Part shown: piece after piece, positions 41,236-59,524 of the stretch | How the letters are laid out: each line of letters opens with the position of its first letter | How positions within the stretch are numbered: position 1 is the stretch's first letter | Source of the DNA: an uncultured Gemmatimonadales bacterium | Lineage (GTDB): Bacteria > Gemmatimonadota > Gemmatimonadetes > Gemmatimonadales > GWC2-71-9 | Assembly (NCBI GenBank): GCA_963739455.1 | Contig: CAVUAK010000002.1 | Location: 320,001 to 384,000 of the forward strand | Length of the DNA stretch: 64,000 bases | Direction of reading: 5' to 3' | Translations under genes and position numbers: made by a program | Notes under the pieces: model-generated | What the model was told of the DNA's origin: nothing | The model's database searches: none | Seen by the model: the letters and a program-made list of their open reading frames with translations, nothing else

Positions 41236-41248
41236 GAAGTGCACCCTC

Positions 41249-41345
41249 TTGCGCGATGTCCCGGCAGGGGTACTCTATGGTCGGGAGACCCGATCCGGCG
41301 ATCCCGCATGACCGGCCCTCCCGACGCGTACCACGCCGCACCGGG
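41249..41345 (+). promoter_or_regulatory. Promoter and conserved leader, copy 1
   Basis: TTGCGC-N16-TACTCT; core 41298-41328 is 29/31 identical to 43837-43867. Confidence 0.7.
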
Positions 41346-41355
41346 GGCCCGTTCT

Positions 41356-43659: not shown

Positions 43660-43710
43660 ACCAGGCGTGGCAGGGCAGTACTTGAGTACAGATTGAACGA
43701 GGTTGACGGA

Positions 43711-43754
43711 GAGGGCGTGAGGTGGCTTCGGCCACTTCACGCCCTCGTCGTTTT
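43711..43754 (+). terminator. Intrinsic terminator after lipoprotein 1
   Basis: GAGGGCGTGAGGTGGC-TTCG-GCCACTTCACGCCCTC then GTCGTTTT; near copy of 41142-41178. Confidence 0.75.
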
Positions 43755-43789
43755 CGAAGCGCAAGGTCGCATCGTTCGTCCTCCGCCTC

Positions 43790-43881
43790 TTGCGCGCTCC
43801 CCGCTCCCGGGTAGTCTAGGATCGGGGGCCCGATCTGCGATCCCGCACGACCGGCACTCCCGACGCGCATCATCGCACCGA
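43790..43881 (+). promoter_or_regulatory. Promoter and conserved leader, copy 2
   Basis: TTGCGC-N16-TAGTCT followed by the same leader core as copy 1. Confidence 0.7.
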
Positions 43882-43890
43882 GGGAGTCTC

Positions 43891-46212
43891 ATGCCTGAAG
43901 TCCGGTCTTCAGTCGTCATCCGCTCACGCAGCTCGCTCGTTGTTGCAACCTTCGCGGTGGTGGGAGGCATCTACCTCTCCGCATGTGCTGGCGAACCACT
44001 GCCCGATACCGGCACCGTATCGGTGGCCCTCGCACCGGCGAGCGTCAACGTGCCACAGGACGGCTCCGGCAACAGTGCCCTGACGGTTCAGCGGGGCGGT
44101 GCGTTCACCGGGCCAGTGACGCTGACGCAAACCGGCGCCCCAGCCGGTGTCACCGTGGCATTCACGCCTTCTGTTGTTCCAGCTGGCGCAACCGCGAGCA
44201 CCGTGACCATCACAGTCGGCGCCACCGTCGCGGCCGGCACTTATCCGGTCAGCATCAGGGCCACGGGCGACAACGTCCCCGCGGCCCTCGCAAACCTTGC
44301 CGTCGTTGTCACTGGTGGTGCGGCCGGCTCGATCACCCTGACGGCTGCACCCACCACGCTCACGGTTCCGGTTGGCGCAGCCGCCGTGACCTCCGTGATC
44401 ACGATCGCGCGAACCGCGCCCTTCGCCGGGGCCGTCGCCCTGACGGTGACAGGTCAGCCGGCAGGCGTGACCGCAACCCTGACTCCCACGAGCGTCACGG
44501 GAACCACCTCGACGCTGAGTGTTCAGTCGGCAACCGGTGCCGTGAACGGCGCGTATCCGCTCGTGATCCACGGAGCAGGTACCGGCATTGCCCCGGCCTC
44601 GGTGACAGTCACCGTGACAGTCACTGGGGGAGCGACAAGTGGCGTCTGGTTCACGTTCACTCCATCCTCTATTCCGGTGACGGTTGGCGGCGGAAGCGCC
44701 ACGTCCGCAGTTCTCATCACGCGCACCAGCTTCCTCGGAGGCATAAACCTCACGATCAGCGGTGCCCCGACAGGCATGAGCGCGAGCGTCAACCCCAACA
44801 ACAACGTCGCCGGGACCGCCGCCACCGTGAGTGTGCAGGCGGGCGCCGCCGTCGCACCAGGCACGTACAACCTGACACTCACTGGAACGGGCGCCGGTAT
44901 ACCGGACGCTACCGGTATCCTGCCGGTCGTGGTGTCACCGGCCAGCGGCGGGGGGAGTGCCACGGTCACCTTCTGCACTGAGGATGCGCCGCTCTGGGTG
45001 GCGTCGCAGGATGGCAACGGTGCCTGGACCCGAGTCGATCCCACGACCGCGGGTGGCACCACGTACCAGTTCACGTTCGCCACGGGCAAGGGCGGGATTG
45101 CGACGGTGCAGTCCGATGCCTCCGGCACAGACCTTAGCGTCCTCTATGCCACACTGGCCGATTTCACCGCCTTCGCCAGTACCGTGAACAACAACGCTTG
45201 CGAATCAAACAAGGCGGTGAACGGATCGGTTTCCGGCGTCGGGGCAACCGAGGCCGCAATTGTCGACCTCGGCGGCAGCTCGGTACGCGTCGATCCCCCC
45301 GCCACTGGTTTCGCGCTTTCAAACGTACCTGGTGGAGTGCGGAACCTGGTGGCGACGCGGATCGACGGCAGCACGGATGCCGTCAACTGGATCATCATAC
45401 GCAGGGGCCTCAACCCCGCCGATCGCGATATACTTCCAACACTGACCTTCGGCACCGAGGGATCCCCGACCGTCTCCGCCAACGTCAGCGTGACCAATCT
45501 CGGCGCTGACGCCGCGACCGTGGGCTCGGTCTTTACCGGTGTGCGGGGCTCATCGTTCGTATTCCTCAGCACCATCGAGAACATTGTGGCAGCCTCGCCA
45601 GCGCAGCTGTACACCGCGATCCCGACGGCCCAGCTCAATGCCGGTGAATTGCAGGAAGTGGTGGCCCTGTCCTCAGCTGCGGGCAACCCGAATAGTGATC
45701 GTTCGGCGGGAGTGTACTTCACGAACGTTGTGGACCGGACCATTGCCCTCGGGCCGAACCTCAGCATTCCCACCGTGACGAAGACGGTGACGGGTGGCAT
45801 TGCTCGGCCGAACGTACAACTGCCAAGCCAGGCAGAGTACGATCGCTATCTCAGCGCTACCTACACGCAGGGCGCCAGCCAATCAGCGAATGTCTTCGCG
45901 ACCGCGTCGTACTACGGCGCCCTCCCCACGACCTGGGATGTGAGCCTGCCAGACCTCTCGACTGTGCCGGGATGGACCGCTTCGTGGGGGCTGCAGGACG
46001 GTACGCCGATCGACTGGGATGTCTCGGCACAGGGTGGTGCGATCACCTTCCTCGACCCGACCATCAGCGACGGAAGCCCCACACGGGGCGCGACGGTCCG
46101 CAGTTCCGCATCATTAGCGCTGCGGGGCGTTCCCGGAGGCACGGACCTGCTGATGCTGCGGCGCCGCCTGATGGAAGTTTTCACGGACAGGCACAGCGAC
46201 CCACTGCACTAG
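43891..46212 (+). CDS. Large lipoprotein with three Ig-like repeats, paralogue 2
   Basis: Lipobox LSA-C; colinear with paralogue 1. Confidence 0.8.
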   Translation: MPEVRSSVVIRSRSSLVVATFAVVGGIYLSACAGEPLPDTGTVSVALAPASVNVPQDGSGNSALTVQRGGAFTGPVTLTQTGAPAGVTVAFTPSVVPAGATASTVTITVGATVAAGTYPVSIRATGDNVPAALANLAVVVTGGAAGSITLTAAPTTLTVPVGAAAVTSVITIARTAPFAGAVALTVTGQPAGVTATLTPTSVTGTTSTLSVQSATGAVNGAYPLVIHGAGTGIAPASVTVTVTVTGGATSGVWFTFTPSSIPVTVGGGSATSAVLITRTSFLGGINLTISGAPTGMSASVNPNNNVAGTAATVSVQAGAAVAPGTYNLTLTGTGAGIPDATGILPVVVSPASGGGSATVTFCTEDAPLWVASQDGNGAWTRVDPTTAGGTTYQFTFATGKGGIATVQSDASGTDLSVLYATLADFTAFASTVNNNACESNKAVNGSVSGVGATEAAIVDLGGSSVRVDPPATGFALSNVPGGVRNLVATRIDGSTDAVNWIIIRRGLNPADRDILPTLTFGTEGSPTVSANVSVTNLGADAATVGSVFTGVRGSSFVFLSTIENIVAASPAQLYTAIPTAQLNAGELQEVVALSSAAGNPNSDRSAGVYFTNVVDRTIALGPNLSIPTVTKTVTGGIARPNVQLPSQAEYDRYLSATYTQGASQSANVFATASYYGALPTTWDVSLPDLSTVPGWTASWGLQDGTPIDWDVSAQGGAITFLDPTISDGSPTRGATVRSSASLALRGVPGGTDLLMLRRRLMEVFTDRHSDPLH

Positions 46213-47125: not shown

Positions 47126-47199
47126 TGGGCCCTGTTGGATTCGAACCAACGACCTACGGATTATGAGTCCGCTGCTCTAACCGACTGAGCTAAGGGCCC
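47126..47199 (-). tRNA. tRNA with CAT anticodon, most likely tRNA-Ile2 (lysidine)
   Basis: GGGCCCTTAGCTCAGTCGGTTAGAGCAGCGGA-CTCATAA-TCCGTAGGTCGTTGGTTCGAATCCAACAGGGCCCA. G1-C72 is paired and there is no GGG/CCC anticodon stem, so not initiator; resembles the E. coli ileX pattern. Confidence 0.9.
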
Positions 47200-47200
47200 G
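47161..47200. repeat. att site within the intact tRNA (5' half)
   Basis: TTATGAGTCCGCTGCTCTAACCGACTGAGCTAAGGGCCCG, identical to 58044-58083. Confidence 0.96.
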
Positions 47201-47211
47201 AACGTTCTGCC

Positions 47212-47240
47212 ACAATAACTTAGCGTTCACCCGGCTTCAA
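47212..47240 (-). promoter_or_regulatory. Element-borne promoter for the tRNA
   Basis: TTGAAG-N17-TATTGT ending 12 nt before tRNA G1 and overlapping the integrase stop. Confidence 0.65.
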
Positions 47241-48495
47241 CGTCGGCCCCTTCCCGGTGGCTCCCGGTGGCATCGGGACGGAGGAACGCCCGCAGGGTGT
47301 CGTCCCCTTCCTCAGTCGCGTGCGTGTAGACCTCAAGCGTAATCTTCGTATTGCTGTGCCCGGCTGCGCGGCTCACCGCCGAGATCGGCATGCCCGCCGT
47401 CACCCAGTCGGAGATCACCCGGTGCCGCAGATCGTACATGCGGACTTCCTTCCGTACGCCCGTCGCCTTCTTCGCCCGCTCGAAACGCTTCACCAGCGCG
47501 TCGTACGTCATCAGCCTGCCGTCCTCCCCGGGGAACAGCAGCCCCGGCGTCCAGCCTGCGCGCTCCTCGGGCGTGGCCGTCAACTCCATGCGCTCGCGCC
47601 GTCCTGCCGCTCGCTGCAGCGCCTCGGCCACCGCCGCCGGGATCGGCAGCGTGCGTCGGCCTGCCCGCGTCTTGGGCGTCTTGAGCACCGCCGCCTGTCC
47701 GCGCACCCACTGCGCCGCGTGCGTCACCTGCAGCGTGTCCGCACTGAGCAGATTCTCCCGGCGCAGCGCCGCCGCCTCACCCGGGCGCATCGGCAGGTAG
47801 CACTGCAGCGTGATGATCGGGCCGATCACATCGTCCGTCTCCGCCCACGCCTTCAGCTTGGTCAACTCCTCCGTCGTCGGGATCGTGAGCGTGTGCTCGC
47901 GCCGCTCCACCTGCGGGAGCGTAACCTTCCCGCCCTTTCGCCCGCTGAGGAACGGGTGCAGCAGCGTGAGGTCCATGCGAATGAAGTACGTGAACGCCTG
48001 CCGGATCGTCGTGTGGAGCTTGAGCGCCTGTTTCCCCGTGCTCGCCCGTTCGACGCGGCTCAAGAGATCCTGCGCGTCCGCCGGGCGAATCTCGCGGACC
48101 TCGCGGCGCGCCAGTCGGTCGCAGTCGCCGTAGGTGAACGCGGGGAGCGGCGTCGTCCCGTCGCGGAGCGCGGTGGCGATGTCCTTCGGGATCAGTTTCC
48201 ACTGCGCGAGCCGCGTGACGTCGTCGTAGAACGTGCGGGCGCTCGCGGTGCTCTGGTGCATCTGCAGCCACTGCACCAGCGACGGCCCGAGCCGCCCCTT
48301 CTTCACGCGGGTCAGTGTGCCGTGTTCCTGCGCGATGGAGCCTTGCACCCGATCGCGTTCCGCCTGTGCCTTCGTGTCACGCACCGGCCCGAGCTTGATG
48401 ATGCTCCCGGCGATCTGGATGCGCGCCTGCCAGCGCATGCCGTCCTTGGACGGACGCGGCTCGACCCAGCCTTCCCCCCGCTTCGCTTTTGCCAT
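47227..48495 (-). CDS. int: Tyrosine integrase with N-terminal arm-binding domain
   Basis: MRPGEAAAL (R), PKTRAGRR (K), YDLRH, AGHSN...EVYTH (H, Y); N-terminal RGEGWV...RWQARI. Confidence 0.95.
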   Translation of the reverse strand: MAKAKRGEGWVEPRPSKDGMRWQARIQIAGSIIKLGPVRDTKAQAERDRVQGSIAQEHGTLTRVKKGRLGPSLVQWLQMHQSTASARTFYDDVTRLAQWKLIPKDIATALRDGTTPLPAFTYGDCDRLARREVREIRPADAQDLLSRVERASTGKQALKLHTTIRQAFTYFIRMDLTLLHPFLSGRKGGKVTLPQVERREHTLTIPTTEELTKLKAWAETDDVIGPIITLQCYLPMRPGEAAALRRENLLSADTLQVTHAAQWVRGQAAVLKTPKTRAGRRTLPIPAAVAEALQRAAGRRERMELTATPEERAGWTPGLLFPGEDGRLMTYDALVKRFERAKKATGVRKEVRMYDLRHRVISDWVTAGMPISAVSRAAGHSNTKITLEVYTHATEEGDDTLRAFLRPDATGSHREGADVEAG

Positions 48496-48531
48496 CGTGA
48501 TTCTCCGTGTGGTGGTTGGTCCTCGCCGGGG

Positions 48532-48708
48532 TCAGAACCCGGCGTCCTGCATGTCCTGCCGTACGTCCTCCGGTAACTCGTCTCGCGTGCGCGCCTGCTG
48601 CAGCGCCCGGCGGATCGCTTGCTGCTCCGCGATCGGTCGCCAGCTGAACGGCTCGCTGTTCACGTACCGGGCGGCTGCCCGGCTGAACGCGGCGTGGTCC
48701 TCCTCCAT
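48532..48708 (-). CDS. 58-aa hypothetical protein upstream of int
   Basis: GAGGAGG SD then MEEDHAAFSRAAARYVN. Confidence 0.6.
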   Translation of the reverse strand: MEEDHAAFSRAAARYVNSEPFSWRPIAEQQAIRRALQQARTRDELPEDVRQDMQDAGF

Positions 48709-48881
48709 CTCGCCTCCTCGTGTGGGGGCGCTTGAAGGAATCGACCGAGGGGACTGCACAGCAAAGGGCCGAGCCTCCGTAGCCCTCCGCCCGCCGCCCG
48801 GCTCCCCTATGGCAGCGCGGTCCTTCGGTGGCCCCCGTCTCCGCTGCTCTCCCGAGGGACCACTGCGCACCGCTCGGCCTC

Positions 48882-48997
48882 TTGATCGAACGCAGCGGTG
48901 CCGGTATGATTGCGTTGAGTCTCGCCTCCAAGCGGCTCATGTGAAGAAAAGGTTTTGCCAGCCCTCGGCGCGTCCACGCCGAGGGTTTGGCGTTTCT
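48882..48997 (+). ncRNA. Candidate ~80-nt small RNA with its own promoter and terminator
   Basis: TTGATC-N17-TATGAT (48882-48910), small hairpin, linker, then 14-bp hairpin 48957-48991 followed by GTTTCT. Confidence 0.55.
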
Positions 48998-49056
48998 GGC
49001 TCTGGCTTTTCTCACCGCCGTGCCCGCTTCACGGCTGGACGCGAACACCCGTGTCA

Positions 49057-49078
49057 AGGTCCGCCAATTGGCGGACCT
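49057..49078. promoter_or_regulatory. Perfect 22-bp palindrome
   Basis: AGGTCCGCCAATTGGCGGACCT. Confidence 0.6.
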
Positions 49079-49219
49079 CACTTCCGCAGCGGCTGGTACT
49101 TCCCGCTGCTCGCCGCCTCGGCACTCCGCATAGGGCGATCGTCCTACCCGTTTGCAAATCCTGGGACGGCGGTTATACGTCCGGGCCTCGCTGCGATTCC
49201 TTCTCGACACGAGGTGCCT

Positions 49220-50014
49220 GTGATCCGGCTGTCCCTGCCGCGCACCAAAGCGGCAACGTTCTGCATCAACTTCCTGCCCGATGATGAGAGCCTGCCGTGG
49301 CCCGCTGGCACCGGCTTCTTCGTGTCGCCCGACGGCGTCTTCATCACAGCGGCCCACGTCGTCACCGAGGACGGCACCCCGACCGGCAAGGTGCGCGACA
49401 ACCTCGGGACCGCTCATTTCAATCGCGAGGCCGCTCACGAGCCCGGCGGTGCCTCCGTGCATTCGCCCTCGCTGATCGAACTGATGCCGTCGCATGACAT
49501 CGCGATCCTGCGCGTCCCGTTTGAGAAACACACGCCTGCGTTTCCCGGTCCCGGCTTTCAGCACCTCCATGTGTCGCGCCGTCAGCTGGAGGACGCCGAA
49601 CCCGTCTACGCGTACGGCTATCCGCTCAGCGAAACCGTCCTCCTGCACCAAGACGAGCACCAGCAGATCGCCGCCCAGAAACTCTCGCCGCGCACGACGT
49701 CGATGATCGTGGCCTCGCAGTGGTACTACGTGCCGAACACCGTGCAGAGCACCGAGCCGGAGCGATACGCGCTCGACAAGGCACTGAACTACGGTAACAG
49801 TGGCGGACCGATCCTCGCCCAGAGCACGGGTCACGTGCACGGATGGTGCTCGCGGTTCCAGCCTGTCGAGATTCCGCAAACGCACCTCGCTGGTCCCGCC
49901 GGAGAGCCGATCCGCATCTTTATGCCGAGCCTCTACGGGATCGTCGGCAGCTTTCACAGCCCCGAAGTGATCGAGGCGCTTGAGCGCCTGAACGTCCCGC
50001 TCGTGGACGCCTAG
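49220..50014 (+). CDS. Trypsin-like serine protease without signal peptide
   Basis: GTGFFV, ITAAHVV (His), DIAIL (Asp), GNSGGP (Ser); GAGG SD before GTG 49220. Confidence 0.88.
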   Translation: MIRLSLPRTKAATFCINFLPDDESLPWPAGTGFFVSPDGVFITAAHVVTEDGTPTGKVRDNLGTAHFNREAAHEPGGASVHSPSLIELMPSHDIAILRVPFEKHTPAFPGPGFQHLHVSRRQLEDAEPVYAYGYPLSETVLLHQDEHQQIAAQKLSPRTTSMIVASQWYYVPNTVQSTEPERYALDKALNYGNSGGPILAQSTGHVHGWCSRFQPVEIPQTHLAGPAGEPIRIFMPSLYGIVGSFHSPEVIEALERLNVPLVDA

Positions 50015-50256
50015 CCCTCCCGTCGCGCTCGTCTCCGCATGCGCTGCCGGTCGATCTTCCGCCGGTGCTGCGCCTGCGGCGTTCGGCATCGCGTGCACAT
50101 GATGCGCGGTCTACCCCGCACACGCCGTCGCGCTGGTACCGTCACCAAGCGCGGGCAGCACAGGCACTCGACCCAGCGCCTCCCCGTGCGGGAGCACGTG
50201 TCGTGGCAGCGCACGCCCGCACACGCCACCCGCAGCAGGATGGACTCGCGCCTCAC
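50011..50256 (-). CDS. Small basic Cys-rich protein, possible zinc finger
   Basis: CLCC...CTRC; start overlaps the upstream stop (GTGA). Confidence 0.45.
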   Translation of the reverse strand: MRRESILLRVACAGVRCHDTCSRTGRRWVECLCCPRLVTVPARRRVRGRPRIMCTRCRTPQAQHRRKIDRQRMRRRARREG

Positions 50257-50705
50257 TGATCGAGCAGCACCGGTCGTGAGTCGCCATCTGCCTGCGGCAA
50301 GCGGCGTCCGCGCAAGCTCGTCACGCCCGGCAGGTAGTCCGCGCTCGCGCTGGTCGGGTATGTCTCGGCCACCACGTCAGCGACGAGCCTCGCGGCCAGC
50401 GGATTGACCACCACCTCGCGCTGCTCCCGGTAGCTCTTGCTCTCGCCCTCGCGCTGGCCGCTCTCGGCGCTCGCGTACAGCGGCGCGAGGCCCCGGGCGA
50501 GGCTGAACCCCACCTGCAGCACCAGCGCCCGGTGGAGACTCGGCGTGTCCTCGGCCTCCTCGTACACCTCCTGCGAGATCGGCAACAGGTCCGCCGCGAG
50601 CGCCACCTCCTCGCCGAATCGTGTCGGGCTCTCCATCGCCATCTGCTTCGCCTGCGGCGTGAGGAGCGGGTGCGCCGTCAGGTCCGGCAACGGGTTGAGC
50701 TTCAC
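50253..50705 (-). CDS. Hypothetical protein, possible phage head-tail adaptor
   Basis: 150 aa; RALVLQVGF...ESKSY...VNPLAARLV resembles adaptor C-termini, by eye only. Confidence 0.4.
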   Translation of the reverse strand: MKLNPLPDLTAHPLLTPQAKQMAMESPTRFGEEVALAADLLPISQEVYEEAEDTPSLHRALVLQVGFSLARGLAPLYASAESGQREGESKSYREQREVVVNPLAARLVADVVAETYPTSASADYLPGVTSLRGRRLPQADGDSRPVLLDQ

Positions 50706-50806
50706 GCGATGATCCGCGCCAGCGCCGCCGTGACCGGGTCGCGGACCGGGTCACCGGTCGTGCTCTTGAGCAACTGCGCAATCGTCGGAAACGGGTACCC
50801 TCGCAT
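50702..50806 (-). CDS. 34-aa small protein missing from the ORF track
   Basis: AAGGAGG SD; MRGYPFPTIAQLLKSTTGDPVRDPVTAALARIIA; stop overlaps the next GTG. Confidence 0.6.
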   Translation of the reverse strand: MRGYPFPTIAQLLKSTTGDPVRDPVTAALARIIA

Positions 50807-50899
50807 GTCGTGCCTCCTTGTCTCGTGAATGACCCCTGCTCGACCCCTGTCATGTGCTCGCTCACCCGGGCAGCATCGCGGTTGCTCTGACCGCCTGCC

Positions 50900-51214
50900 T
50901 TACATCGCCCGCTGCCGGGCCAGCACGTCCGCTGCTGCCGTGGCTCGGTCCTGCGCCTGCTGCAGCTTGGCGCGATTCTCGAGCGCGATCTTGCCCCGGA
51001 AGCACATCCAGTATTCCGCCTCGGTGAACGTCCATCCGTTCGCGGCGTCCTCCGCCTCGCGAGCCGCGACGATCTCCTGCATGCTCTTGCCCGCGAGCCG
51101 CATCGCTTTGCCGCGCTCGGCGCGGATCGCGTTCCGCCGCTCCTCCTCCTCGTGGCGCGCTATCTCCTCGTCCTCCTCCGCGAGCAGTCGCTCGCGCTCG
51201 ACGTACTCGCTCAC
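50900..51214 (-). CDS. Helical hypothetical protein
   Basis: GTG overlaps the upstream stop; charged helical sequence. Confidence 0.6.
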   Translation of the reverse strand: MSEYVERERLLAEEDEEIARHEEEERRNAIRAERGKAMRLAGKSMQEIVAAREAEDAANGWTFTEAEYWMCFRGKIALENRAKLQQAQDRATAAADVLARQRAM

Positions 51215-51492
51215 TGGCCGTGGTAGAGCGAGTCGAGCGGCTTGTGCATCGCCTGATACGCGGCGAGGTCCGCCTCCTGCTTCACCTTCACGTCCGCCGC
51301 CTCGGCGGCGAGAAACTGATCCATCGACTCCCACTGCAGGTTCGCCTTCGCGTACGCAGCTTCGAGGACTTGCGTCTGCTGCTCCATCGTCAGGCCCTCG
51401 AAGGCGTTCTCCCGGCGCAGCTTGTCGCGCAGCCGGTCGCGCTGCTGGCCCATGTCGCGTGCGATCTTTTCCTCTTGCGTCAGTCCTGACAT
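51211..51492 (-). CDS. Helical hypothetical protein
   Basis: GAGGAG SD; MSGLTQEEKIARDMG. Confidence 0.65.
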   Translation of the reverse strand: MSGLTQEEKIARDMGQQRDRLRDKLRRENAFEGLTMEQQTQVLEAAYAKANLQWESMDQFLAAEAADVKVKQEADLAAYQAMHKPLDSLYHGQ

Positions 51493-51536
51493 GCTCGTCT
51501 CCTCAGTGGTGCTGATAACTGCGCTGATTTGCGCAC

Positions 51537-51716
51537 TTACTTCCGCAGCGGGGCGAGCGCCCCGTATCTGGCGCGGTACCACTCGCCCCGGCACTGCGCT
51601 GTCGCGAACTCCACGCGGACGCGGCGCTGCAGCGTGCACGTCATGCGGGGCACGCGCTCGCGCATCTCGCGCTCGTCGTGCGCCTCGGGCACCGGCCACG
51701 CCAGTGTGATGCTCAC
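51537..51716 (-). CDS. 59-aa hypothetical protein
   Basis: GTG overlaps the upstream stop (GTGA). Confidence 0.35.
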   Translation of the reverse strand: MSITLAWPVPEAHDEREMRERVPRMTCTLQRRVRVEFATAQCRGEWYRARYGALAPLRK

Positions 51717-52363
51717 TCGCTGGCGCTCGGCTGTGCCATGAGCAGGGGCGAGGGCAGGCGCAGTCCGGTCGCCATCGCGATCAGCGGCGCGATCAGCGTT
51801 GTGTAGGCTGGGGCGATGCGATGCCGCCCGAGCGTCCGCAGCGCCACCTTCCCGTCGCCCGTCACGTCCTTGAGCGCCTGCTCGTGCGCGAGCAACGCGA
51901 GACACCACTCCCGCGTCGGCAGGAACCCTGCGTCGATCCGATCCGCGCCGATCGTGAGGTGCGCGTCGTAGGCCTCCACCTTCGGGTCGAGCAGTGCCTT
52001 CTCGGCGGCACGCTGCTCCGCCTGCACCCGGGCACGCTCCGCCTGCTCCTCGCGTTCACGGGCGATGCGGGCGAGCGTGGCGTTCGCCTCCTGCTCCTCA
52101 CGGTCGAGCGCGTCGAGGCGCGGGGGTTCGTCCGGCCCCTTGAACGCGGGGTGGAAGTACCCGCGCCCGTGCTCGTCCTTCGCGCCGAGCGGGAACGGCG
52201 ACGCCACGGGCTCCGCGTCCGCCGTCTCTGCCGCACTCTCGTCCAGCAACTCGACACGCTCCAGCCCGGTCCCGTCCGGCAGCGGCTGCGGCTGACTGCG
52301 GCGACGCCCGGCCATCACCGGATGCGGAACCTTGTCCACCTCGATCTTCGTTCCAGTGCTCAT
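51713..52363 (-). CDS. Hypothetical protein with central coiled coil
   Basis: ATGA overlap with the upstream gene; MSTGTKIEVDK. Confidence 0.65.
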   Translation of the reverse strand: MSTGTKIEVDKVPHPVMAGRRRSQPQPLPDGTGLERVELLDESAAETADAEPVASPFPLGAKDEHGRGYFHPAFKGPDEPPRLDALDREEQEANATLARIAREREEQAERARVQAEQRAAEKALLDPKVEAYDAHLTIGADRIDAGFLPTREWCLALLAHEQALKDVTGDGKVALRTLGRHRIAPAYTTLIAPLIAMATGLRLPSPLLMAQPSASE

Positions 52364-52662
52364 GACTGTCCTCGGTGCCCGCGTGGGCGTTGCTGTGGTC
52401 GTGCCTTCGGCGTGATGGCAACGGCGTGGTGCCGCCTGCGCTGCCCGTGATTCCCCTTGCCGTCCGGCGCGGCTTCGGCGTCGAGGATGCCGTGCTGCAG
52501 CGCCCACGCGCAGATGAGGTCGATGCGCGCTGGGACCTCGGCCAGCGTGAGCCCGAGCACCGTCGCGATGCGCTCGGGCGACTTCTTCTCGCGCAGGGCA
52601 CGCAGGAGCCACATCGCCTCCCGCAGTTCCCGGCCCGGCGTGCCCACGCTTGGCGGAATCAC
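52360..52662 (-). CDS. Possible helix-turn-helix protein
   Basis: KSPERIATVLGLTLAEV pattern; coupled to neighbours on both sides. Confidence 0.5.
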   Translation of the reverse strand: MIPPSVGTPGRELREAMWLLRALREKKSPERIATVLGLTLAEVPARIDLICAWALQHGILDAEAAPDGKGNHGQRRRHHAVAITPKARPQQRPRGHRGQS

Positions 52663-53087
52663 GCGGCGCGAGCCTCACGAGGGAGCAGGTCGCCTCTCGC
52701 CGGGATGCCCTGCGCCCGCAGGTACGCGTCCATCGTCGGGGCCACCACGAGCGCCGCTCGCCCACTCATCCGGCAGAGCCCGCTGCTGTCGAGGTAGTGC
52801 CCCCTCGGGACGTTGTCGTACGGCGCGATGACGTCGAGGAGCGGCCAGTAGTGCCGGGCGATCCATCGGGCCTCCTGCCACGAGATCGGCATCCAGCGCC
52901 GCCCCTCCGGCGTCACGAGGATCGTCTCCGGTAGCTCGCCGCGACTGAACCGCAGCGGAATGCTGAGCACGGCAGTGAAGTAGTTCGCTGGGAGCTTGCC
53001 CCCACGCGGGAACGGGATAGAATCGCGGCACGTCATACGGCACCCCTGATCGGTGTTGTATCGCGAGCCGGAGGGGCGGCGCGTCAA
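52659..53087 (-). CDS. Hypothetical protein; start uncertain
   Basis: Stop overlaps the next GTG; globular-like composition. Confidence 0.5.
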   Translation of the reverse strand: MTRRPSGSRYNTDQGCRMTCRDSIPFPRGGKLPANYFTAVLSIPLRFSRGELPETILVTPEGRRWMPISWQEARWIARHYWPLLDVIAPYDNVPRGHYLDSSGLCRMSGRAALVVAPTMDAYLRAQGIPARGDLLPREARAA

Positions 53088-53109
53088 CGCTGCCTCCCGG
53101 CGTGTTGTT

Positions 53110-53469
53110 TTACAGCATGTCCGGCGACCACACGTCGGACGCCAACTCCGCCTCCCGCGCCTGTGTCAGCCGCAGGACCATGTCGTTCAACTCGGCAACG
53201 ACCTCGGCCAGCACCTCGCTCGCCTCGCCCATCGGCGCCGGGTCGTCCCGCCCTTCGATCGCCGCGAGATAGCCCTCGAACTCCTGCCGGTGCATGTCGA
53301 GGCTGCGCTTCACCCGCTCCATCTGCTCGCGGTCGTTCACCAGCTTGTTGATGCACGAGCGCAGGACGCGAGGCGCACCGCGCCGGAGCCGGGGCTGTCC
53401 GGTCAGGTTCCCGCCCTGTCGCGCCACCGCTGCCAACTGCGCAGTGATCGGGTCGTGCGTGGTGCTCAC
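53110..53469 (-). CDS. Coiled-coil hypothetical protein
   Basis: AGGAGG SD before GTG. Confidence 0.65.
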   Translation of the reverse strand: MSTTHDPITAQLAAVARQGGNLTGQPRLRRGAPRVLRSCINKLVNDREQMERVKRSLDMHRQEFEGYLAAIEGRDDPAPMGEASEVLAEVVAELNDMVLRLTQAREAELASDVWSPDML

Positions 53470-53644
53470 GGTGATGCCTCCTGTTGCGTCCTCAGCGCCT
53501 CGCTGGCGCGTCGTCGCGATCTACTCCGGTATCCTCCGGCCCTCGCGTCGTTCCCTCGGCAGCGGGGCGATGGCGTCGGCGTGTGCATCCGCCGCCTCGT
53601 GCGCCCGCGTAGTCAAGTGGATCAACGCACAAGGCACGTCGCAC

Positions 53645-53674
53645 ACTCTACGTGTGGCGCCACCCGCTGTGCAA
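53645..53674 (-). promoter_or_regulatory. Promoter of the element's small-gene operon
   Basis: TTGCAC-N18-TAGAGT. Confidence 0.5.
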
Positions 53675-53684
53675 CGCACCGAAA

Positions 53685-53923
53685 GTTGACAGTCCGGTCG
53701 CTGCGTTTCCCTCTCCGGGCGCGTTGGCGCGTTAGCGCACTTTTAGGGGAACTTTCTCTATAGAAATCTCTTATAGGGGTTACCTCAAAACTGTGCCGAC
53801 GTGTCAACCTGTCCGGCGTTTTCCGACGCTTCCCCCCACGTAGAACGCGTTAACGCGATTTCCCGGGAATCTCCCCGCTACCGCACAATCCCTGGAGGTT
53901 TCGGAAAAGCGTGTCAACGTGTC
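53685..53923. other. Candidate replication origin
   Basis: AT-richer core 53739-53792; CGTGTCAAC(C/G)TGTC at 53800 and 53910; inverted GTTGACA at 53685; directly downstream of the helicase. Confidence 0.5.
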
Positions 53924-55414
53924 TCACCACCCATCTGTCGGGTCGCGGGGCAGTTGCACGCGCACGCCGAGCCAGCCGCGCACGCCGTTCAGCTTGTGGG
54001 GTCGGAGGCCGAAATTCGGCAGGTGCCGCCCGAGCTTCGTCGAGGTCATCGGCTCCTCGCCGTCGCCCATCGCGAACGCCTGATAGGCCGTCAGCAAGTC
54101 TTTCGACGTCGTGAACGCCGCCGGGTCCATCTCGCACTGCTCGTCGAGGAACCCGCCGATCCGGTCGTTGTTCGTCCGGTGCTGCTTCGTCGCGGCGTCC
54201 ACGATCGCACACGGCGGCAGTCGTCCCGGCGCGGTCGGCTGTTTCGGCCCGTCGTCACCGCCCTCGCCCCGGCGCCATGCCAGCGCGCCCCGGACGATCC
54301 ACGCGAGGATGCCCTCGGCCTCCGCCTGCAGCTTCTCCTCCAGCTGGAGATCGCGTTCCTCCTCCGGCACCGTGACGCTGAACGGCACCAGCCGCAGCCG
54401 CCGCCAGATGCCGTCGTCCGTCCCTCGCACCTTCGGCACGCTGTTCGTCGCCAGCATCGGCAGGTGCCTCGGCACGAAGTCGAAGAACTCGTGATAGAGC
54501 CGCCGGGCGCTGACCATGCTGCCGCCCGTCTGCACCTTGATCTTCGCCTCGGCCAACTCCACTTCCTCCGGCGTCTCCTCACACGAGACGAGGCGGCGAC
54601 CCACCGTCTTGGCGAGGTCGTTCGGCACGTCGCTGCCCTTGCCGACGAACAGCGTTAGCGGCCCCGCGATCGCGTACTCCCCGAACGCATGCGTGATCGC
54701 TCGGAGCAACTTCGTCTTGCCGTTCTGTCCCTTGCCGAAGAAGATCGCCATGATTTCCTCGCTGCCGCCGCCCGCCGCTGCGTACCCCGCGACACACTGC
54801 AGCCAGTGCCGCACCTCCTGATCGGGTTGCGCGTACCGCAGCACCCGCAGGAACAGGGCGCACTCTGCGTCCGGGTCGTACGCGTGCCCCGTCGTGAACG
54901 TGCTGTAGTCCTCGCGGTTATGCGGGCGCAATTCCCCCGTGCGCAGGTCCACCGTCCCGTTGCTGCAGGTGAGCAGGTGGTGCTGCCGGTTGAACAGGTC
55001 GGTCCTCGCCATCAGCAGCGGGTGCGACTTCGCCTGCTGCAGCACGGCGTTGAGCCGCTGCGCGTTGTGGAACTGCGTACTCGCCTTGAGCGCCTTCTGC
55101 CGATCGTCCGCGTTCTCGATCGCGTTTGCCTCCGCCGTCCGCCGCCGTGCTGTTTCCCACGCCCGCCGCGTCGCCGCCTCCTGCGCATCCGGCACCCACC
55201 GCGTCCCGTCCCACGCCATCCACCCCTCGGCCCGGGTATGGCGGAGTGTCGCGTGATGCTGCTCCGCGAAGCGCCTCGCGTACTCCAGATCGGTGAACGG
55301 GCGCTCCCCGTCGATGTCAGCGGCAGACGGCATGCGGCTGATGACTTCCGCTGCCGTGGGCTCTGGGGCGGCGTCAAGCGCGTGCCCGACCTCGGGCTCA
55401 TTGGGCGGCGTCAT
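53924..55414 (-). CDS. D5/P4-family primase C-terminal SF3 helicase
   Basis: WMAWDGTRW, NGTVDLRTGELRPH, Walker A GKGQNGKT, TDDGIWRRL, EAEGILAW. Confidence 0.93.
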   Translation of the reverse strand: MTPPNEPEVGHALDAAPEPTAAEVISRMPSAADIDGERPFTDLEYARRFAEQHHATLRHTRAEGWMAWDGTRWVPDAQEAATRRAWETARRRTAEANAIENADDRQKALKASTQFHNAQRLNAVLQQAKSHPLLMARTDLFNRQHHLLTCSNGTVDLRTGELRPHNREDYSTFTTGHAYDPDAECALFLRVLRYAQPDQEVRHWLQCVAGYAAAGGGSEEIMAIFFGKGQNGKTKLLRAITHAFGEYAIAGPLTLFVGKGSDVPNDLAKTVGRRLVSCEETPEEVELAEAKIKVQTGGSMVSARRLYHEFFDFVPRHLPMLATNSVPKVRGTDDGIWRRLRLVPFSVTVPEEERDLQLEEKLQAEAEGILAWIVRGALAWRRGEGGDDGPKQPTAPGRLPPCAIVDAATKQHRTNNDRIGGFLDEQCEMDPAAFTTSKDLLTAYQAFAMGDGEEPMTSTKLGRHLPNFGLRPHKLNGVRGWLGVRVQLPRDPTDGW

Positions 55415-56427
55415 CGTGTGCGCTCCCGAAGCAGTTGCTCGTTGCGTTCGTCCATGAGCCGCTGGTATGCCTGCTCGTATCGCTCTCGCCACGCCGCCCA
55501 CGACACGCCGAACAGCCGCTGCGTCGCCAGATCGTACGCCCGGCGGCGATCACCAGCGGCGTCCAGCGCGACGAGGAGGTCGAAGGCGTTCTTCGCATGC
55601 GTCCGCCCATCGTCACCCGGCTGGGAGAGCGGATCATCGGCGTGATGGACGTAGACCTTGCCCGTGTTCTCGAAGAACTTCACGCCCGGTGCTGACCCAC
55701 GTGCCGCGTGCGGACTGCGCCAGCGATCGCGCCGCCGCTGGTAGCCGTGCTGCGCCAACAACTCCGCCACCGTGATGCTCGCGTTGAACGTCGCGATCAA
55801 CACCTTCACCGGATGCGTGTCGCTCATCGGCGGGCGTTCGCGGCGGCCCGTGTCGATCGGAGCCGGGTCAAACGGCCACTGCTCGTACAACTGCCGCAGC
55901 GCGTCCGGCCACTGCGCCAATCCCTCGACGCGGGGATCGACGCGCCACGTGTAGCGCCCGCCGGTCGCACGCGGGCTCGGCGGCAGGATGTCGTAGCCAC
56001 TCAGCCGCACTTCGAACAGCGTCCGCTCGGGCTCGGGCTCGACCAACTTCTTCACTGTGCGCACCGTCGCGCTGTCGGCCGCGAACATCACCTTTGCCCG
56101 CTCGTGGCCCCGCTCGTCGGTGCGGCCCTCCATCCTCGCGCCCATGTCGAGCCACCCGTCCACGTCCTCGCCCGCCGCGTGCAGCACGGCGCGGGTGCGC
56201 CTGAGATTGTCCACGTCGAGCATCATGGTCTGGCTCGGCGCGTTCACCCCGGCGAAGCCGCAGCCGGGAATCCGCTCGCGCACCTGTTCCAGATGCTCGC
56301 GAGTGCGGAGCACCGCGTCTGGTCGCGCCCACGGGTAGAAGCGCGGCGGCACTTTCGTCCCGGGCACAATGGGGATCAGTCCAATGCCGAGCAGGAAGTA
56401 TTCGGCGTACTCGTCGAGGTCACCCAT
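55411..56427 (-). CDS. Bifunctional DNA primase/polymerase (Prim-Pol) protein
   Basis: LIPIVPGTKVP, MLDVD, YDILPPS...GGRYTW; GGAGG SD. Confidence 0.8.
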   Translation of the reverse strand: MGDLDEYAEYFLLGIGLIPIVPGTKVPPRFYPWARPDAVLRTREHLEQVRERIPGCGFAGVNAPSQTMMLDVDNLRRTRAVLHAAGEDVDGWLDMGARMEGRTDERGHERAKVMFAADSATVRTVKKLVEPEPERTLFEVRLSGYDILPPSPRATGGRYTWRVDPRVEGLAQWPDALRQLYEQWPFDPAPIDTGRRERPPMSDTHPVKVLIATFNASITVAELLAQHGYQRRRDRWRSPHAARGSAPGVKFFENTGKVYVHHADDPLSQPGDDGRTHAKNAFDLLVALDAAGDRRRAYDLATQRLFGVSWAAWRERYEQAYQRLMDERNEQLLRERTR

Positions 56428-56596
56428 CGAATCCTCCGCAGGCATCCGCAGTGCGTGCGGCTCCCTCGGCAGTTGCCGCGTTCGCTGGCGGACGCATCCG
56501 CTGCCCGTGCTGCTCCTCGCGTCGGGCCTCGTACTCCGCGTCACGCCGCAGCCGTCGCAGCAGGCTCTCCAACCGAACCGATTCCCTGCGCTTCAT
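56420..56596 (-). CDS. 58-aa basic protein missing from the ORF track
   Basis: GGAGG SD; MKRRESVRLESLLRRLRRDAEY; overlaps the Prim-Pol start. Confidence 0.5.
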   Translation of the reverse strand: MKRRESVRLESLLRRLRRDAEYEARREEQHGQRMRPPANAATAEGAARTADACGGFDG

Positions 56597-56665
56597 CCCC
56601 GCCTCCCCCGAACACGTTGAGCCCGCACGCCCGATCGTCGGGCGCGCAGGCAGGATTGCTGGTGA

Positions 56666-57169
56666 CTACTTCGGAGCCCGCCCTGCGAGCGTGTCATCCA
56701 CGCAGAGCGCCCGGCCATCGAGCACCGACGCGGCCTGCACCTCCACCCACGCACCCGGCGCGAACGCCGCCATCACCTGCACGCTGCCGTCGCGCTGGAC
56801 CGCACCACAGAGCAGCGAGCCGACCGCGTCCACCGTGACGGTGTCCGCGTACAGCCACATCCAGCAGTCCTCCTCGCCGGTCGGCTCGCGCACCGCCCAG
56901 AAGCGTGACCCGTACCGCGCCGGGGGGAGGGGGAGCCCACGCAGCTTCCGCTGCCGGTCGCGGCGCATCTCCGCCCGCCACGCCTGCGCTTCCTTCGCGG
57001 TGGCGAAACTCCGCTTCTCGCGATGCATCTGCCCGCCCGGCAGCTTCAGGTTCACGGCGGCTTGGTAGGGGAGGTCCGCGTCAGGGCGATGAATCACGCC
57101 CTTGACGTTCCGGGCCTCCGGTCGGCGTGACGCCTTGACCTGCGTCTCCTGCATTCGCATTCTTCCCAT
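56666..57169 (-). CDS. Protein with integrase arm-type (AP2-like) N-terminal domain and unknown C-terminal domain
   Basis: YQAAVNLKLPGGQMHREKRSFATAKEAQAWRAEM pattern; no recombinase catalytic motifs. Confidence 0.6.
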   Translation of the reverse strand: MGRMRMQETQVKASRRPEARNVKGVIHRPDADLPYQAAVNLKLPGGQMHREKRSFATAKEAQAWRAEMRRDRQRKLRGLPLPPARYGSRFWAVREPTGEEDCWMWLYADTVTVDAVGSLLCGAVQRDGSVQVMAAFAPGAWVEVQAASVLDGRALCVDDTLAGRAPK

Positions 57170-57299
57170 CGTCTTTCACTCCCTCGCTGGTGGTGGAACG
57201 ACTCGTCGGCTTGCTCCGTGTGTGGGGCCGACACGCGACACGTGTCAGAAGCGTGTCGCACCCCCGAGCGCCGCCTCCCAAGGGCGGCGTTCGGCTTTC

Positions 57300-57527
57300 T
57301 CAGGCGGCACTGGGTTCCTCACGGCGACGCGGGCCGGGCTGCGGTGCCCTCGCGGCAGCCTCCGCCTTCTGCCGGGCCAGATAGGCCTCGGCGCTCGCCC
57401 GCGTGATCTTCAGCCGCTTTTGCATCACGAACGCTTCCAGCTGGCCCTCCGCGATGAGCCGCTTCAGCGACCGCTTGCTGAAGTCCCATTCCACGCACAG
57501 CGTGTCCGCGTTGATGAGGCCCGTCAC
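57300..57527 (-). CDS. Excisionase-like HTH protein
   Basis: SKRSLKRLIAEGQLEAF...RLKITRASAEAYL; first gene of the replication operon. Confidence 0.75.
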   Translation of the reverse strand: MTGLINADTLCVEWDFSKRSLKRLIAEGQLEAFVMQKRLKITRASAEAYLARQKAEAAARAPQPGPRRREEPSAA

Positions 57528-57582
57528 TCCCGTCTCCCGCCGTTCTCGTGGCACCCTGCCCTCCTGCGTTGCTTCGGTTGGT

Positions 57583-57641
57583 AGAACGCAAAGAGCCCCG
57601 GGTCGCGACGACAGGATCTCTCCTGTCGTGCAACCCGGGGC
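57583..57641 (-). terminator. Attenuator-like hairpin upstream of the excisionase
   Basis: GCCCCGGGTTGCACGACAGGA-GAGA-TCCTGTCGTCGCGACCCGGGGC then TCTTTGCGTTCT. Confidence 0.65.
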
Positions 57642-57870
57642 GATGTGAAATGCGTAGCTCCGGTCCTACTGGATTACGGCGCCGTCTCCTGCGCCGACTC
57701 GGCGTCCATCTCTCGCCGCCCGCCTACCGGCGGGGCTGATCCATGTCGGCTCGGGCGGGTGGTTTCACACCTCCGCATTCGAGCCCTCCTGCGTTGTCGC
57801 GAGTCAATCTGCGCGTTGGTGATCCAAAAGTCAAACGTCCGCTGCGCTCTGCTTCGCTCCGATTTCGTCG

Positions 57871-57899
57871 CGTATAACTGCCGCGAAAAGGATTCACAA
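57871..57899 (-). promoter_or_regulatory. Candidate promoter of the xis-replication operon
   Basis: TTGTGA-N17-TATACG. Confidence 0.4.
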
Positions 57900-58043
57900 A
57901 TTCCGGTGGCATCCGGTGGTGCCTGTGCCTTTCTCCGCCGTTTTCTGCCCTCCGGGACGGGGAGCGACGCGCGACGTTTTCACCAAGCAAATGCGCGTGC
58001 AACATGGGGTTATCCCTGTCGCACGCGCATGTGAAAAGTCTGC

Positions 58044-58083
58044 TTATGAGTCCGCTGCTCTAACCGACTGAGCTAAGGGCCCG
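58044..58083. repeat. att site: orphan 5' half of the tRNA
   Basis: Identical to 47161-47200; identity ends exactly at the end of the anticodon loop. Confidence 0.96.
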
Positions 58084-58094
58084 CGTCCCTTCAA

Positions 58095-58442
58095 CTATCG
58101 CTCGTACTCCTGCTCCAGCGGCTCGACGACCACCGCCGTGCCATAGCACAACACTTCCGTGACGCCCTTCCCGATCTCGGTGGCATCGTAGCGCACGCCA
58201 ACAACAGCGTTCGCCCCTCGTCGATCCGCGTGTGCCATCATGATCTCATACGCCTCATCCCGCGCCTTCTCGCACAGGTCGGTGTAGAGCGAGATGTTGC
58301 CCCCGACAATCGTCTGCAGGCTCGCCCCGATCTGGCCGAATACCGAGCGCGACCGAACCACGATGCCCCGCACGATACCCAGGCTCTGGATGACGCGGTG
58401 GTTCTCGAGCGTGAAGGTCGTCGTCGTCATGTCCGTGTGCAT
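58095..58442 (-). CDS. YbjQ/UPF0145 family protein
   Basis: [22 protein letters not shown]. Confidence 0.93.
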
Positions 58443-59524
58443 CAGCTGCTCCCCTGGGCCCGCACTCGCTCATACAGCGCGATGTAGCGCTCCGCCATGA
58501 TAGCCCGCGTGAACTGTTCCTTCACCCGCTGGCGGCCGGCAGCTCCCATCCGTTCCCGCAGTTGCGGATCCCGTCCGAGCGTCTCGAGCGCGCGCGACAT
58601 CGCCTCCACATCGCGGATCGGCACCTCGAGCCCCGTGACGCCAGGGAGGCTCAGCTCACGCACGCCGGTCGGCAACGCCGTGGTGATGACCGCCCGCCCT
58701 GCCGCCATCGCCTCGAGCACTGAGATCCCGAACATCTCGTCGGAGGTTACCGACGGAAGCACCAGGAAGTCAGCATCGGCCATGCGGCGCGGCAGGTCCT
58801 CGTCGGGGTACTCGCCGAACCAGCGCACGCGATCGGCAATGGCGAGTGCCCGGGCCATTGTCTTGAGGCGCGGGGCATCCGGCCCATTGCCGATGACGTC
58901 GAGTCGCACGTCCGACGTCTGCTCCAGCGCCCGCAGCAGGATGTCGAGGCCCTTCCAGCTCGCCAGCCGGCCGATGAAGATGGCCCGGGGCGGCGCTCCT
59001 GGCGGTGGCGGCGGCACGACGTCCCAGCGCGACTCGTCGATGCCGAACGGGATCACCTCGGTCTTCGCCTCGTAGCCGCGCAGGTCAGCCGACAATGCCA
59101 GGTGCGCCCGGCTCGGAACAACGATCGCCTTGGCCTTGCGGAGCACGAGGCGAACCGCCGGGCGGTAGATGCCATGACGGGCGTCGCCGTGGTGCGTTAC
59201 CACCACCGGGGCGCTCCCCGCGCGGAGAAGCACGGCGACATCGGCCAGCACATGGGGATGGTGCACGTGGATGATGTCCGCCCGCTTCCACGCCGCCGCC
59301 AGGTAGCCCGGCGCGATCTCCTGCGACCCGAGGGCGCCCAGCGAATAGGTGCGCGTGACGGTGCTGCGCGAGCGACCGGACTGGCCGGTGCCGAACACGG
59401 ACTCGACCGCGACCACCTGCACGTCGTGTCCGAGCGCCGCGGCACCTTCCGCGAGGCCCTGCACGACCCGCTCCATGCCGCCGGAACGTGGCCAGTAATA
59501 CTTGGCGAGGTGCAGGATCCGCAT
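58442..59524 (-). CDS. Glycosyltransferase family 4
   Basis: [30 protein letters not shown]. Confidence 0.92.

Follow-up and report, generated by a model that had tools for sequence, protein, structure and literature searches.

What happens to a host tRNA gene when an integrating element displaces its 5′ rather than its 3′ half, and from where is the rebuilt tRNA then transcribed? The question is raised by a 64,000-nucleotide stretch of DNA, hereafter the window, from an uncultured Gemmatimonadales bacterium (contig CAVUAK010000002.1 of assembly GCA_963739455.1, positions 320,001 to 384,000), in which an element of 10,883 bp (repeat copy to repeat copy) lies at the gene for tRNA-Ile2. The boundaries of this element, its geometry, its empty site and the identity of the tRNA are established below. 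We consider it likely, on balance, that a satellite-like element recombined in the anticodon loop of tRNA-Ile2 through a reversed attachment (att) site, attP, which would supply a promoter for the rebuilt tRNA and a hairpin to stop host transcription, and that excision would undo the arrangement.

The element is bounded by two copies of the 5′ half of tRNA-Ile2

The features that define the boundaries are as follows.

47126–47199, minus strand: intact tRNA-Ile2 (anticodon CAU), CCA not encoded; 5′ half from the element-side repeat, 3′ half from the host (ARAGORN; Rfam, 77.9 bits; cloverleaf)
47161–47200, minus strand: att core copy 1, 40 bp, within the intact tRNA (exact repeat)
47161–47167, minus strand: anticodon loop CTCATAA, probable 7-bp strand-exchange region (repeat identity ends there)
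58044–58083, minus strand: att core copy 2, the orphan host 5′ half of tRNA-Ile2 (exact repeat)
58095–58442, minus strand: host ybjQ, whose stop is 12 nt short of the orphan half (PF01906; neighbour of the intact tRNA in 4 of the 11 same-genus genomes)
58442–59524, minus strand: host GT4 glycosyltransferase, its stop overlapping the ybjQ start (profile match)

The two copies of the 40-bp direct repeat are 100% identical. Read on the minus strand, each has a single flanking C and then tRNA sequence that starts at G1 and stops where the anticodon loop stops; identity is lost immediately on either side. Such a repeat is expected by chance about 4 × 10−18 times per genome, and a BLAST search with the tRNA and the whole element found no third copy elsewhere in the four contigs of the assembly. 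Along the tRNA strand the order is glycosyltransferase, ybjQ, orphan half, element, integrase, intact tRNA and a gene for an FkbM methyltransferase. An earlier sequence-only reading of the window had reported this repeat, its end at the anticodon loop and the order from ybjQ to the intact tRNA; its coordinates proved exact, the repeat unique in the genome, and the order right when open reading frames (ORFs) were annotated with profiles. The same reading had proposed reversed integration, in which the element carries the 5′ fragment of the tRNA, and the anatomy of the repeat together with the empty sites bears this out. The locus also has the configuration that the available part of the Islander description (PMC4383910) gives for 5′-fragment islands: an intact tRNA gene and a cognate fragment in the same orientation, the 5′ fragment upstream, a PF00589 integrase inside, and a length within 2–200 kb. 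The integrase is of neither Xer nor integron type, as models for both score far under cut-off on it.

Empty sites were found in 4 of the 11 same-genus genomes (G003, G004, G006 and G008), where the glycosyltransferase–ybjQ pair stands directly before an intact tRNA and the ybjQ stop lies 10–19 nt from G1, just as the sequence-only reading had expected of relatives lacking the element. The tRNA is 100% identical to that of the window in G003, G004 and G006 and 99% identical in G008, so its 3′ half and the DNA downstream are host sequence; an FkbM gene also follows the tRNA in G008. Among the remaining seven genomes, three have a glycosyltransferase gene but no ybjQ, and four have neither, within the 1.5 kb upstream that was examined.

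The crossover itself probably lies within the 7-nt anticodon loop, because orphan 5′ halves in four related genomes stop at the same base as the repeat in the window and a 3′ tRNA fragment in another genome of the order (G333) starts at that same breakpoint. The orphan copy in the window carries no mutation although it is not under selection, which suggests that the insertion is recent or still active. We considered the 10.3-kb contig C4 of the assembly as an excised form of the element and rejected it, as it has no similarity to the element.

The joined tRNA is the only AUA reader detected

The intact tRNA carries G3–C70, C4–G69, C5–G68 and A73. The three base pairs, the first of which is a negative determinant for Met and fMet, mark tRNA-Ile(CAT) (PMC1635315, in the part available). 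Three CAT tRNAs are called in the assembly by ARAGORN, and the other two have C3, one of them with the initiator pattern C1:A72; a single tilS is present (TIGR02432, above cut-off). These features point to a lysidine-type tRNA-Ile2 identity for the element-joined tRNA, and the isotype assigned to it earlier is supported by the discriminator bases and by the presence of tilS. No tRNA-Ile(TAT) is among the ARAGORN calls for the assembly, and AUA occurs 1,044 times, in 716 of 2,138 ORFs from a crude gene caller. The genome (four contigs, 3.6 Mb, 67% GC) is 83.7% complete, and within it the intact tRNA is the sole AUA reader detected. The check on copy number that the sequence-only reading had called for thus returns a single tRNA-Ile2 gene in an assembly that is 84% complete.

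A candidate promoter lies at the element end of the tRNA

Five features make up the proposed attP beyond its core.

47212–47240, minus strand: candidate element-borne promoter TTGAAG-17-TATTGT, predicted start near 47205 (14.0 bits)
47227–48495, minus strand: tyrosine integrase, 422 amino acids, R237-K275-Y354-R357-H380-Y390 (PF00589, E 8e-15; phrog_1, E 2e-42)
47254–47270, plus strand: arm-type tandem repeat CCGGTGG-N3-CCGGTGG, 54 bp away from the core and within the 3′ end of the integrase gene (motif search)
57903–57919, plus strand: the other arm-type tandem repeat, oriented like the first and about 125 bp inward of the far core (motif search)
57977–58037, minus strand: strong hairpin with a weak U-tract, starting 6 nt past the orphan half; candidate terminator or insulator (−34.7 kcal/mol)

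The hexamer TTGAAG (47240–47235) falls within V-E-A, the final codons of the integrase, whose TGA stop is in the 17-nt spacer, and TATTGT (47217–47212) ends 12 nt before G1 of the tRNA. We scored this site with a two-hexamer model that was seeded with the sigma-70 consensus and then trained on 37 regions upstream of other tRNA and tmRNA genes in the same genome, operon-internal and dubious tRNA calls being excluded; its consensus is TTG-m-c-n, 17 nt, TA-n-n-TT. The 14.0 bits of the element site are reached by about 0.1% of 3,000 random windows and exceeded by 11 of the 37 host regions when held out, and both the spacer and the 12-nt distance agree with host tRNA promoters.

By the same model the native DNA before the orphan half scores 1.7 bits, the scores of the four empty sites range from −0.6 to 5.8 bits, and a candidate promoter of 11.8 bits, TTGACC-17-CAACTT (59616–59588), lies 64 nt before the glycosyltransferase gene. 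On the simplest reading, the native tRNA would be the tail of a glycosyltransferase–ybjQ operon and would gain a dedicated promoter on integration; with no promoter-like site at the native location, this would be a promoter gain and not a swap. Past the orphan half, the hairpin has a z-score of −6.07, and none of 200 shuffled sequences was as stable.

Of the three occurrences of CCGGTGG-N3-CCGGTGG in 3.6 Mb, two are at the element ends, and this tandem motif may provide arm-type sites for the integrase. The two close homologues of the integrase (P0002 and P0003, about 85% identity, full or near-full length) retain both RPDATG, which overlaps the arm site, and the terminal VEA, which overlaps the −35 hexamer TTGAAG; the residues directly before VEA vary, in a comparison made at the protein level. 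The lack of a detected promoter at the native site, the arm repeats and the hairpin behind the orphan half are points added here to the sequence-only reading.

Taken together, attP would run from the integrase end with its arm site through the promoter, the 5′ half-tRNA and the hairpin to the second arm. Before integration the tRNA would be the last cistron of the glycosyltransferase–ybjQ transcript. After it, the host 5′ half stays behind ybjQ and the 5′ half brought by the element is joined to the host 3′ half; TTGAAG/TATTGT would transcribe the rebuilt tRNA, and the hairpin would block the host transcript from entering the element; excision would bring back the original arrangement.

Reversed islands recur in the order

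Of 400 further genomes in the order, 4 matched an exact Ile2 5′-half pattern ending at the loop (three of the 186 within the family, in one genus, and one of the 214 outside it), a count that, like that of 3′-fragment patterns, is an underestimate. Genome G333 has an 8.2-kb reversed island at tRNA-Ile2 (locus L177) whose integrase has no significant similarity to that of the window and is split over two frames, a frameshift that is possibly a sequencing error. G397 has a 5.6-kb reversed island at the same tRNA (L178) in which no integrase was detected. Both retain a promoter-like site before the intact tRNA despite the broken or undetected integrase. The loci in the other two genomes, G411 and G527, are interrupted by contig ends.

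The integrase of G333 belongs to a second clade, represented by 11 loci (L189–L199, from G333, G092, G173, G038, G359, G442 and others). In seven of these the integrase is followed head-to-tail by a tRNA (Ile2, three Cys, Lys and two Ser), in one the tRNA is convergent and in three there is none; all seven head-to-tail tRNAs are preceded by promoter-like sites of 9.6–15 bits, 9–11 nt upstream. The orphan 5′ half lies on the same contig in G038, at 13.4 kb, and on other contigs in G092 and G359; none was found for G173. The geometry described above for tRNA-Ile2, with promoter-like sites of 9.6–12.6 bits, is also seen in G333 and G397 (Ile2), G038 and G092 (Cys) and G359 (Lys). In these five genomes the orphan half is likewise preceded by a promoter-like site, so there the integration amounts to a promoter swap. 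Reversed integration therefore recurs in the order with an unrelated integrase clade, and island finders restricted to 3′ fragments would overlook a recurring class in this bacterial order.

Duplications of the 3′ end of tRNA-Ile2 were also found, in another set of 190 genomes from the family, as four same-contig pairs (one of them in G100) and three identical cross-contig pairs, counts read straight from the match list; both orientations are therefore used at this tRNA. A preference of tRNA-Ile2 for reversed integration, which we had considered, is not supported, as 3′ duplications are at least as frequent. A scan of genome contigs for orphan Ile2 or Met 5′ halves was dominated by intact elongator tRNA-Met and gave 5 orphan-like stretches among the 120 listed, after four contig ends, three probable intron-containing archaeal tRNAs and one internal duplicate had been set aside; it yields no frequency.

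Several of these loci have features of their own. In L177 (G333, contig C183, 7363–19190) the tRNA-Ile2 gene is flanked by islands on both sides, one marked by a 5′ fragment that lies 8.2 kb upstream and the other by a 3′ fragment that lies 3.6 kb downstream. The anticodon loop is the breakpoint in either case, and KaiC-like and PAS/histidine-kinase-like ORFs, named by eye, are among the cargo. Bases just past the orphan loop complement the 5′ acceptor strand of the tRNA in L177 (14140–14190), L178 (about 8700) and L179 (about 1505). The stem closed by the L177 orphan half has a z-score of −2.0, and such stems could be chance or could neutralize the half-tRNA. In L178 the DNA before the intact tRNA (3137) and that before the orphan half (8743) are 83% alike over 54 bp, and the corresponding regions of L206 and L207 are visibly similar, which suggests promoter capture from the host or tandem elements.

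Two loci lie further afield. One in a Hydrogenophaga metagenome-assembled genome (MAG; L184, 3160–4909) has an orphan tRNA(CAT) 5′ half, 212 bp on a different complete tRNA(CAT), and then an integrase, an arrangement resembling, by analogy, tRNA-dependent lysogeny outside Actinobacteria. The other, in an Actinomycetota MAG (L183, 3495–6467), is a reversed element of 2.9 kb at tRNA(CAT), its integrase lying beside the orphan half and not beside the intact gene.

Dependence of the host and competing explanations

How strongly would such an element bind its host? In the strongest form of the proposal, the element drives an essential tRNA, is hard to lose for that reason and has its integrase end held by selection. 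The single tRNA-Ile2 gene, the single tilS and the wide use of AUA speak for this, as do the lack of a promoter-like native site and the hairpin behind the orphan half; tilS is described in the available part of PMC3919564 as essential in Bacillus subtilis without a suppressor, and by analogy tRNA-Ile2 and tilS may be essential in this host. Yet precise excision would rebuild the native state, which sets the element apart from addiction of the toxin–antitoxin kind, and the completeness of the assembly leaves room for a second tRNA-Ile2 gene. The stretch needed in cis, about 40 bp at roughly 47200–47240, overlaps just the last five integrase codons, and L177 and L178 keep a promoter-like site with a frameshifted (perhaps misread) and an undetected integrase, respectively. 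The claim that selection holds the integrase end was therefore overstated in the sequence-only reading: the pattern in G333 and G397 fits selection on the promoter rather than on the integrase, and the tRNA would be starved only by deletions that take about 47200–47240 and spare the hairpin. We regard the strongest form as unlikely.

We give slightly less credit still to a more elaborate proposal in which attP is a purpose-built cassette of promoter, half-tRNA and terminator. Such a cassette would sever the sole AUA-reading tRNA from its native operon and give it a constitutive-type promoter overlapping the arm sites, so that the host would depend on 40 bp of element sequence, the supply of tRNA-Ile2 and AUA decoding would vary with integration, and binding of integrase or Xis at the arm beside the −35 hexamer could tune an essential tRNA. 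Were it true, gene expression would be regulated by reversible integration at a tRNA.

An explanation that we judge improbable accepts the reversed integration and holds that the tRNA is made mainly by read-through, from the integrase gene, other element promoters or the host operon, with TTGAAG/TATTGT incidental. Several observations lean this way or weigh against our preferred account. All identified element genes except one for a protease point toward the tRNA, the integrase gene ends 27 bp before G1 so that its read-through could feed the tRNA, and the native tRNA itself seems to live on read-through. The sequence-only reading was right about the position and orientation of TTGAAG-N17-TATTGT, but a generic sigma-70 scan does not report the site, which fits at 8 of 12 positions where the threshold is 9 and scores well only with the model built from tRNA upstream regions of this genome. 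Our own model is motif-only, and several genuine host tRNAs score near zero with it, so a low native score is no proof that a promoter is absent. The hairpin has a weak U-tract, does not appear in a terminator scan, has an equally strong neighbour at about 57594–57641, and has a comparable counterpart behind just one of seven other folded orphan halves (L180, z-score −2.8); a conserved terminator behind every orphan half, which we had entertained, is accordingly not supported. Searches of 400 further genomes from the phylum (at E 1e-20) and of metagenome and viral contigs did not yield the DNA context of P0002 and P0003, and no clear inverted core-type symmetry is visible by eye round the loop in the reconstructed attP. 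Against read-through as the main source stand the score reached by so few random windows, a spacer and distance like those of host tRNA promoters, the retention of VEA in both integrase homologues, and independent reversed elements with a promoter-like site at the same position. We therefore keep to an element-borne promoter as the likelier source of the tRNA.

It is very improbable that the element brought the whole of the intact tRNA as a substitute for a host gene it had destroyed, with the true boundary past the tRNA 3′ end: that mechanism is published (PMC10865867, in the part available) and L184 resembles it, but here the tRNA is identical to that of the empty-site relatives, the genes downstream are host genes as in G008, G003 and G006, and the assembly holds no orphan 3′ half. 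We give equally little credence to an assembly artefact or chance repeat, which the incompleteness of the assembly might invite, given the coherent att anatomy (core, two arms and an adjoining integrase), the matching empty sites and the breakpoint shared with four other genomes.

Gene content places the element among satellite-like integrative elements

In addition to the integrase, the element contains the following.

49127–50014, plus strand: trypsin-like serine protease, cargo, start approximate (PF13365, E 3e-15)
50253–53469, minus strand: run of short ORFs (no Pfam, PHROG, NCBIfam or PADLOC match)
53924–55501, minus strand: P4/D5-type primase C-terminal (helicase) protein (D5_N; TIGR01613 above cut-off; PHROG primase matches)
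55411–56544, minus strand: Prim-Pol, bifunctional primase/polymerase (PF09250, E 9e-10)
56666–57169, minus strand: ORF weakly similar to an Arm-DNA-binding domain (PF14657, E 7e-4, under cut-off)
57300–57554, minus strand: excisionase-like small protein (phrog_66, E 8e-4, weak)
57594–57641, minus strand: long hairpin within the leader that precedes the xis-like gene, position approximate (region 57560–57700, z-score −5.4)
57806–57834, minus strand: candidate promoter TTGACT-17-CAGATT for the xis/primase operon (13.3 bits)

The GC content of the element is close to that of the host. In its integrase, Tyr replaces the first His of the H-x-x-R motif, and identity to phage records is about 23–27% among the ten matches listed. 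The protease is the sole identified element gene on the opposite strand; it stands alone and gives partial PADLOC matches to protease domains of defence systems. The two short ORFs tried in Atlas gave no usable match. The non-coding leader at 57560–57800 contains the long near-perfect hairpin and further stems and matches no Rfam family; it could be an attenuator, a small RNA or a replication origin.

Searches of 13–16 element ORFs each against Pfam, PHROGs and NCBIfam found no capsid, terminase, relaxase, or secretion or conjugation genes, with several ORFs left without assignment, among which a divergent terS or capsid gene is possible. The element has the size (10–20 kb), integrase and replication genes of phage-inducible chromosomal islands (PICIs) and tycheposons; it has no detected terS or major capsid gene and is therefore not classed as a PICI. 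Nor were the relaxase and type IV secretion genes of an integrative and conjugative element or the virion genes of a prophage found in it. No relatives of its primase/helicase were found in viral contigs. On this gene content we describe it as a satellite-like integrative element.

Relation to described systems

The sequence-only reading had put weight on the rarity of this geometry, which is already published: 159 of 3,919 Islander islands carry a 5′ tRNA-gene fragment (PMC4383910), and recombination at the 5′ region is called considerably rarer in PMC6563490, which cites Zhao and Williams 2002 (PMC9897764 gives background on the topic only; all three as far as the text was available). The locus shares with published reversed integration a tyrosine integrase, a tRNA target, a displaced 5′ fragment upstream and a site in the anticodon loop, and differs in its Ile2 target, in a native gene that is apparently the promoterless tail of an operon, and in an integrase with only two close homologues of full or near-full length.

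Four described systems come close, each as given in the accessible part of its source. In pelagiphages HTVC021P, HTVC022P, HTVC109P, HTVC120P and others (bioRxiv 10.1101/410191), a disrupted host tRNA is likewise complemented by a 5′ part from the phage, and metagenome junctions have the integrase upstream of the intact tRNA; however, these are complete podoviruses at tRNA-Cys, tRNA-Leu and tRNA-Arg, and that part of the text never uses the word promoter. Islands with dusA-associated integrases (PMC4482086) replace the 5′ end of their target and bring putative −35 and −10 regions, whereas their target is protein-coding and described as dispensable. In the tRNA-dependent lysogeny of actinobacteriophages (PMC10865867) the host relies on element DNA for a non-redundant tRNA, Ile2-CAT being among the targets, but the core spans about 10 bp, the host tRNA stays broken, and a whole tRNA gene comes with the phage; the 40-bp core in the window rebuilds the tRNA, and ARAGORN and Rfam place no further tRNA within the element. 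PICIs and tycheposons (bioRxiv 10.1101/2020.12.28.424599) share the 10–20-kb class, a tRNA-targeting tyrosine integrase, an excisionase-like gene and a primase/helicase, whereas the element in the window has no detected terS or major capsid gene, has its integrase at the far end from xis and co-directional with it, and has no known helper.

The locus is a clean further example of described reversed integration, not a new mechanism, and it overturns no established view. It is well delimited, and its mechanism is probably the one that the sequence-only reading proposed. Its points of note are the apparent gain of a promoter by a single-copy tRNA-Ile2 at an operon tail and the apparent overlap of arm site, integrase end and promoter. 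Our literature search found no paper on an element-provided tRNA promoter, which does not establish absence from print, as supplements and the Islander tables lay outside the search and may hold Ile2 cases or remarks on promoters. In the published accounts, as far as available, the transcriptional effect of reversed integration is asserted or left aside, not measured. With its compact and fully resolved attP (core, two arms, promoter and hairpin) and close empty-site relatives, the locus is therefore a good test case for the rewiring of a probably essential tRNA.

Neighbourhood of the locus

Across many genomes of the family (L002–L030), tRNA-Ile2 adjoins a GT4 glycosyltransferase gene and is often near tRNA-Val(CAC). 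Elsewhere in the window, 41239–43659 and 43693–46212 encode two tandem proteins of about 800 amino acids that look alike, are rich in Thr/Gly/Ala repeats and have lipoprotein-like starts; the one of them that was scanned had no Pfam match. Homologues of these proteins lie near tRNA-Ile2 in several same-genus genomes.

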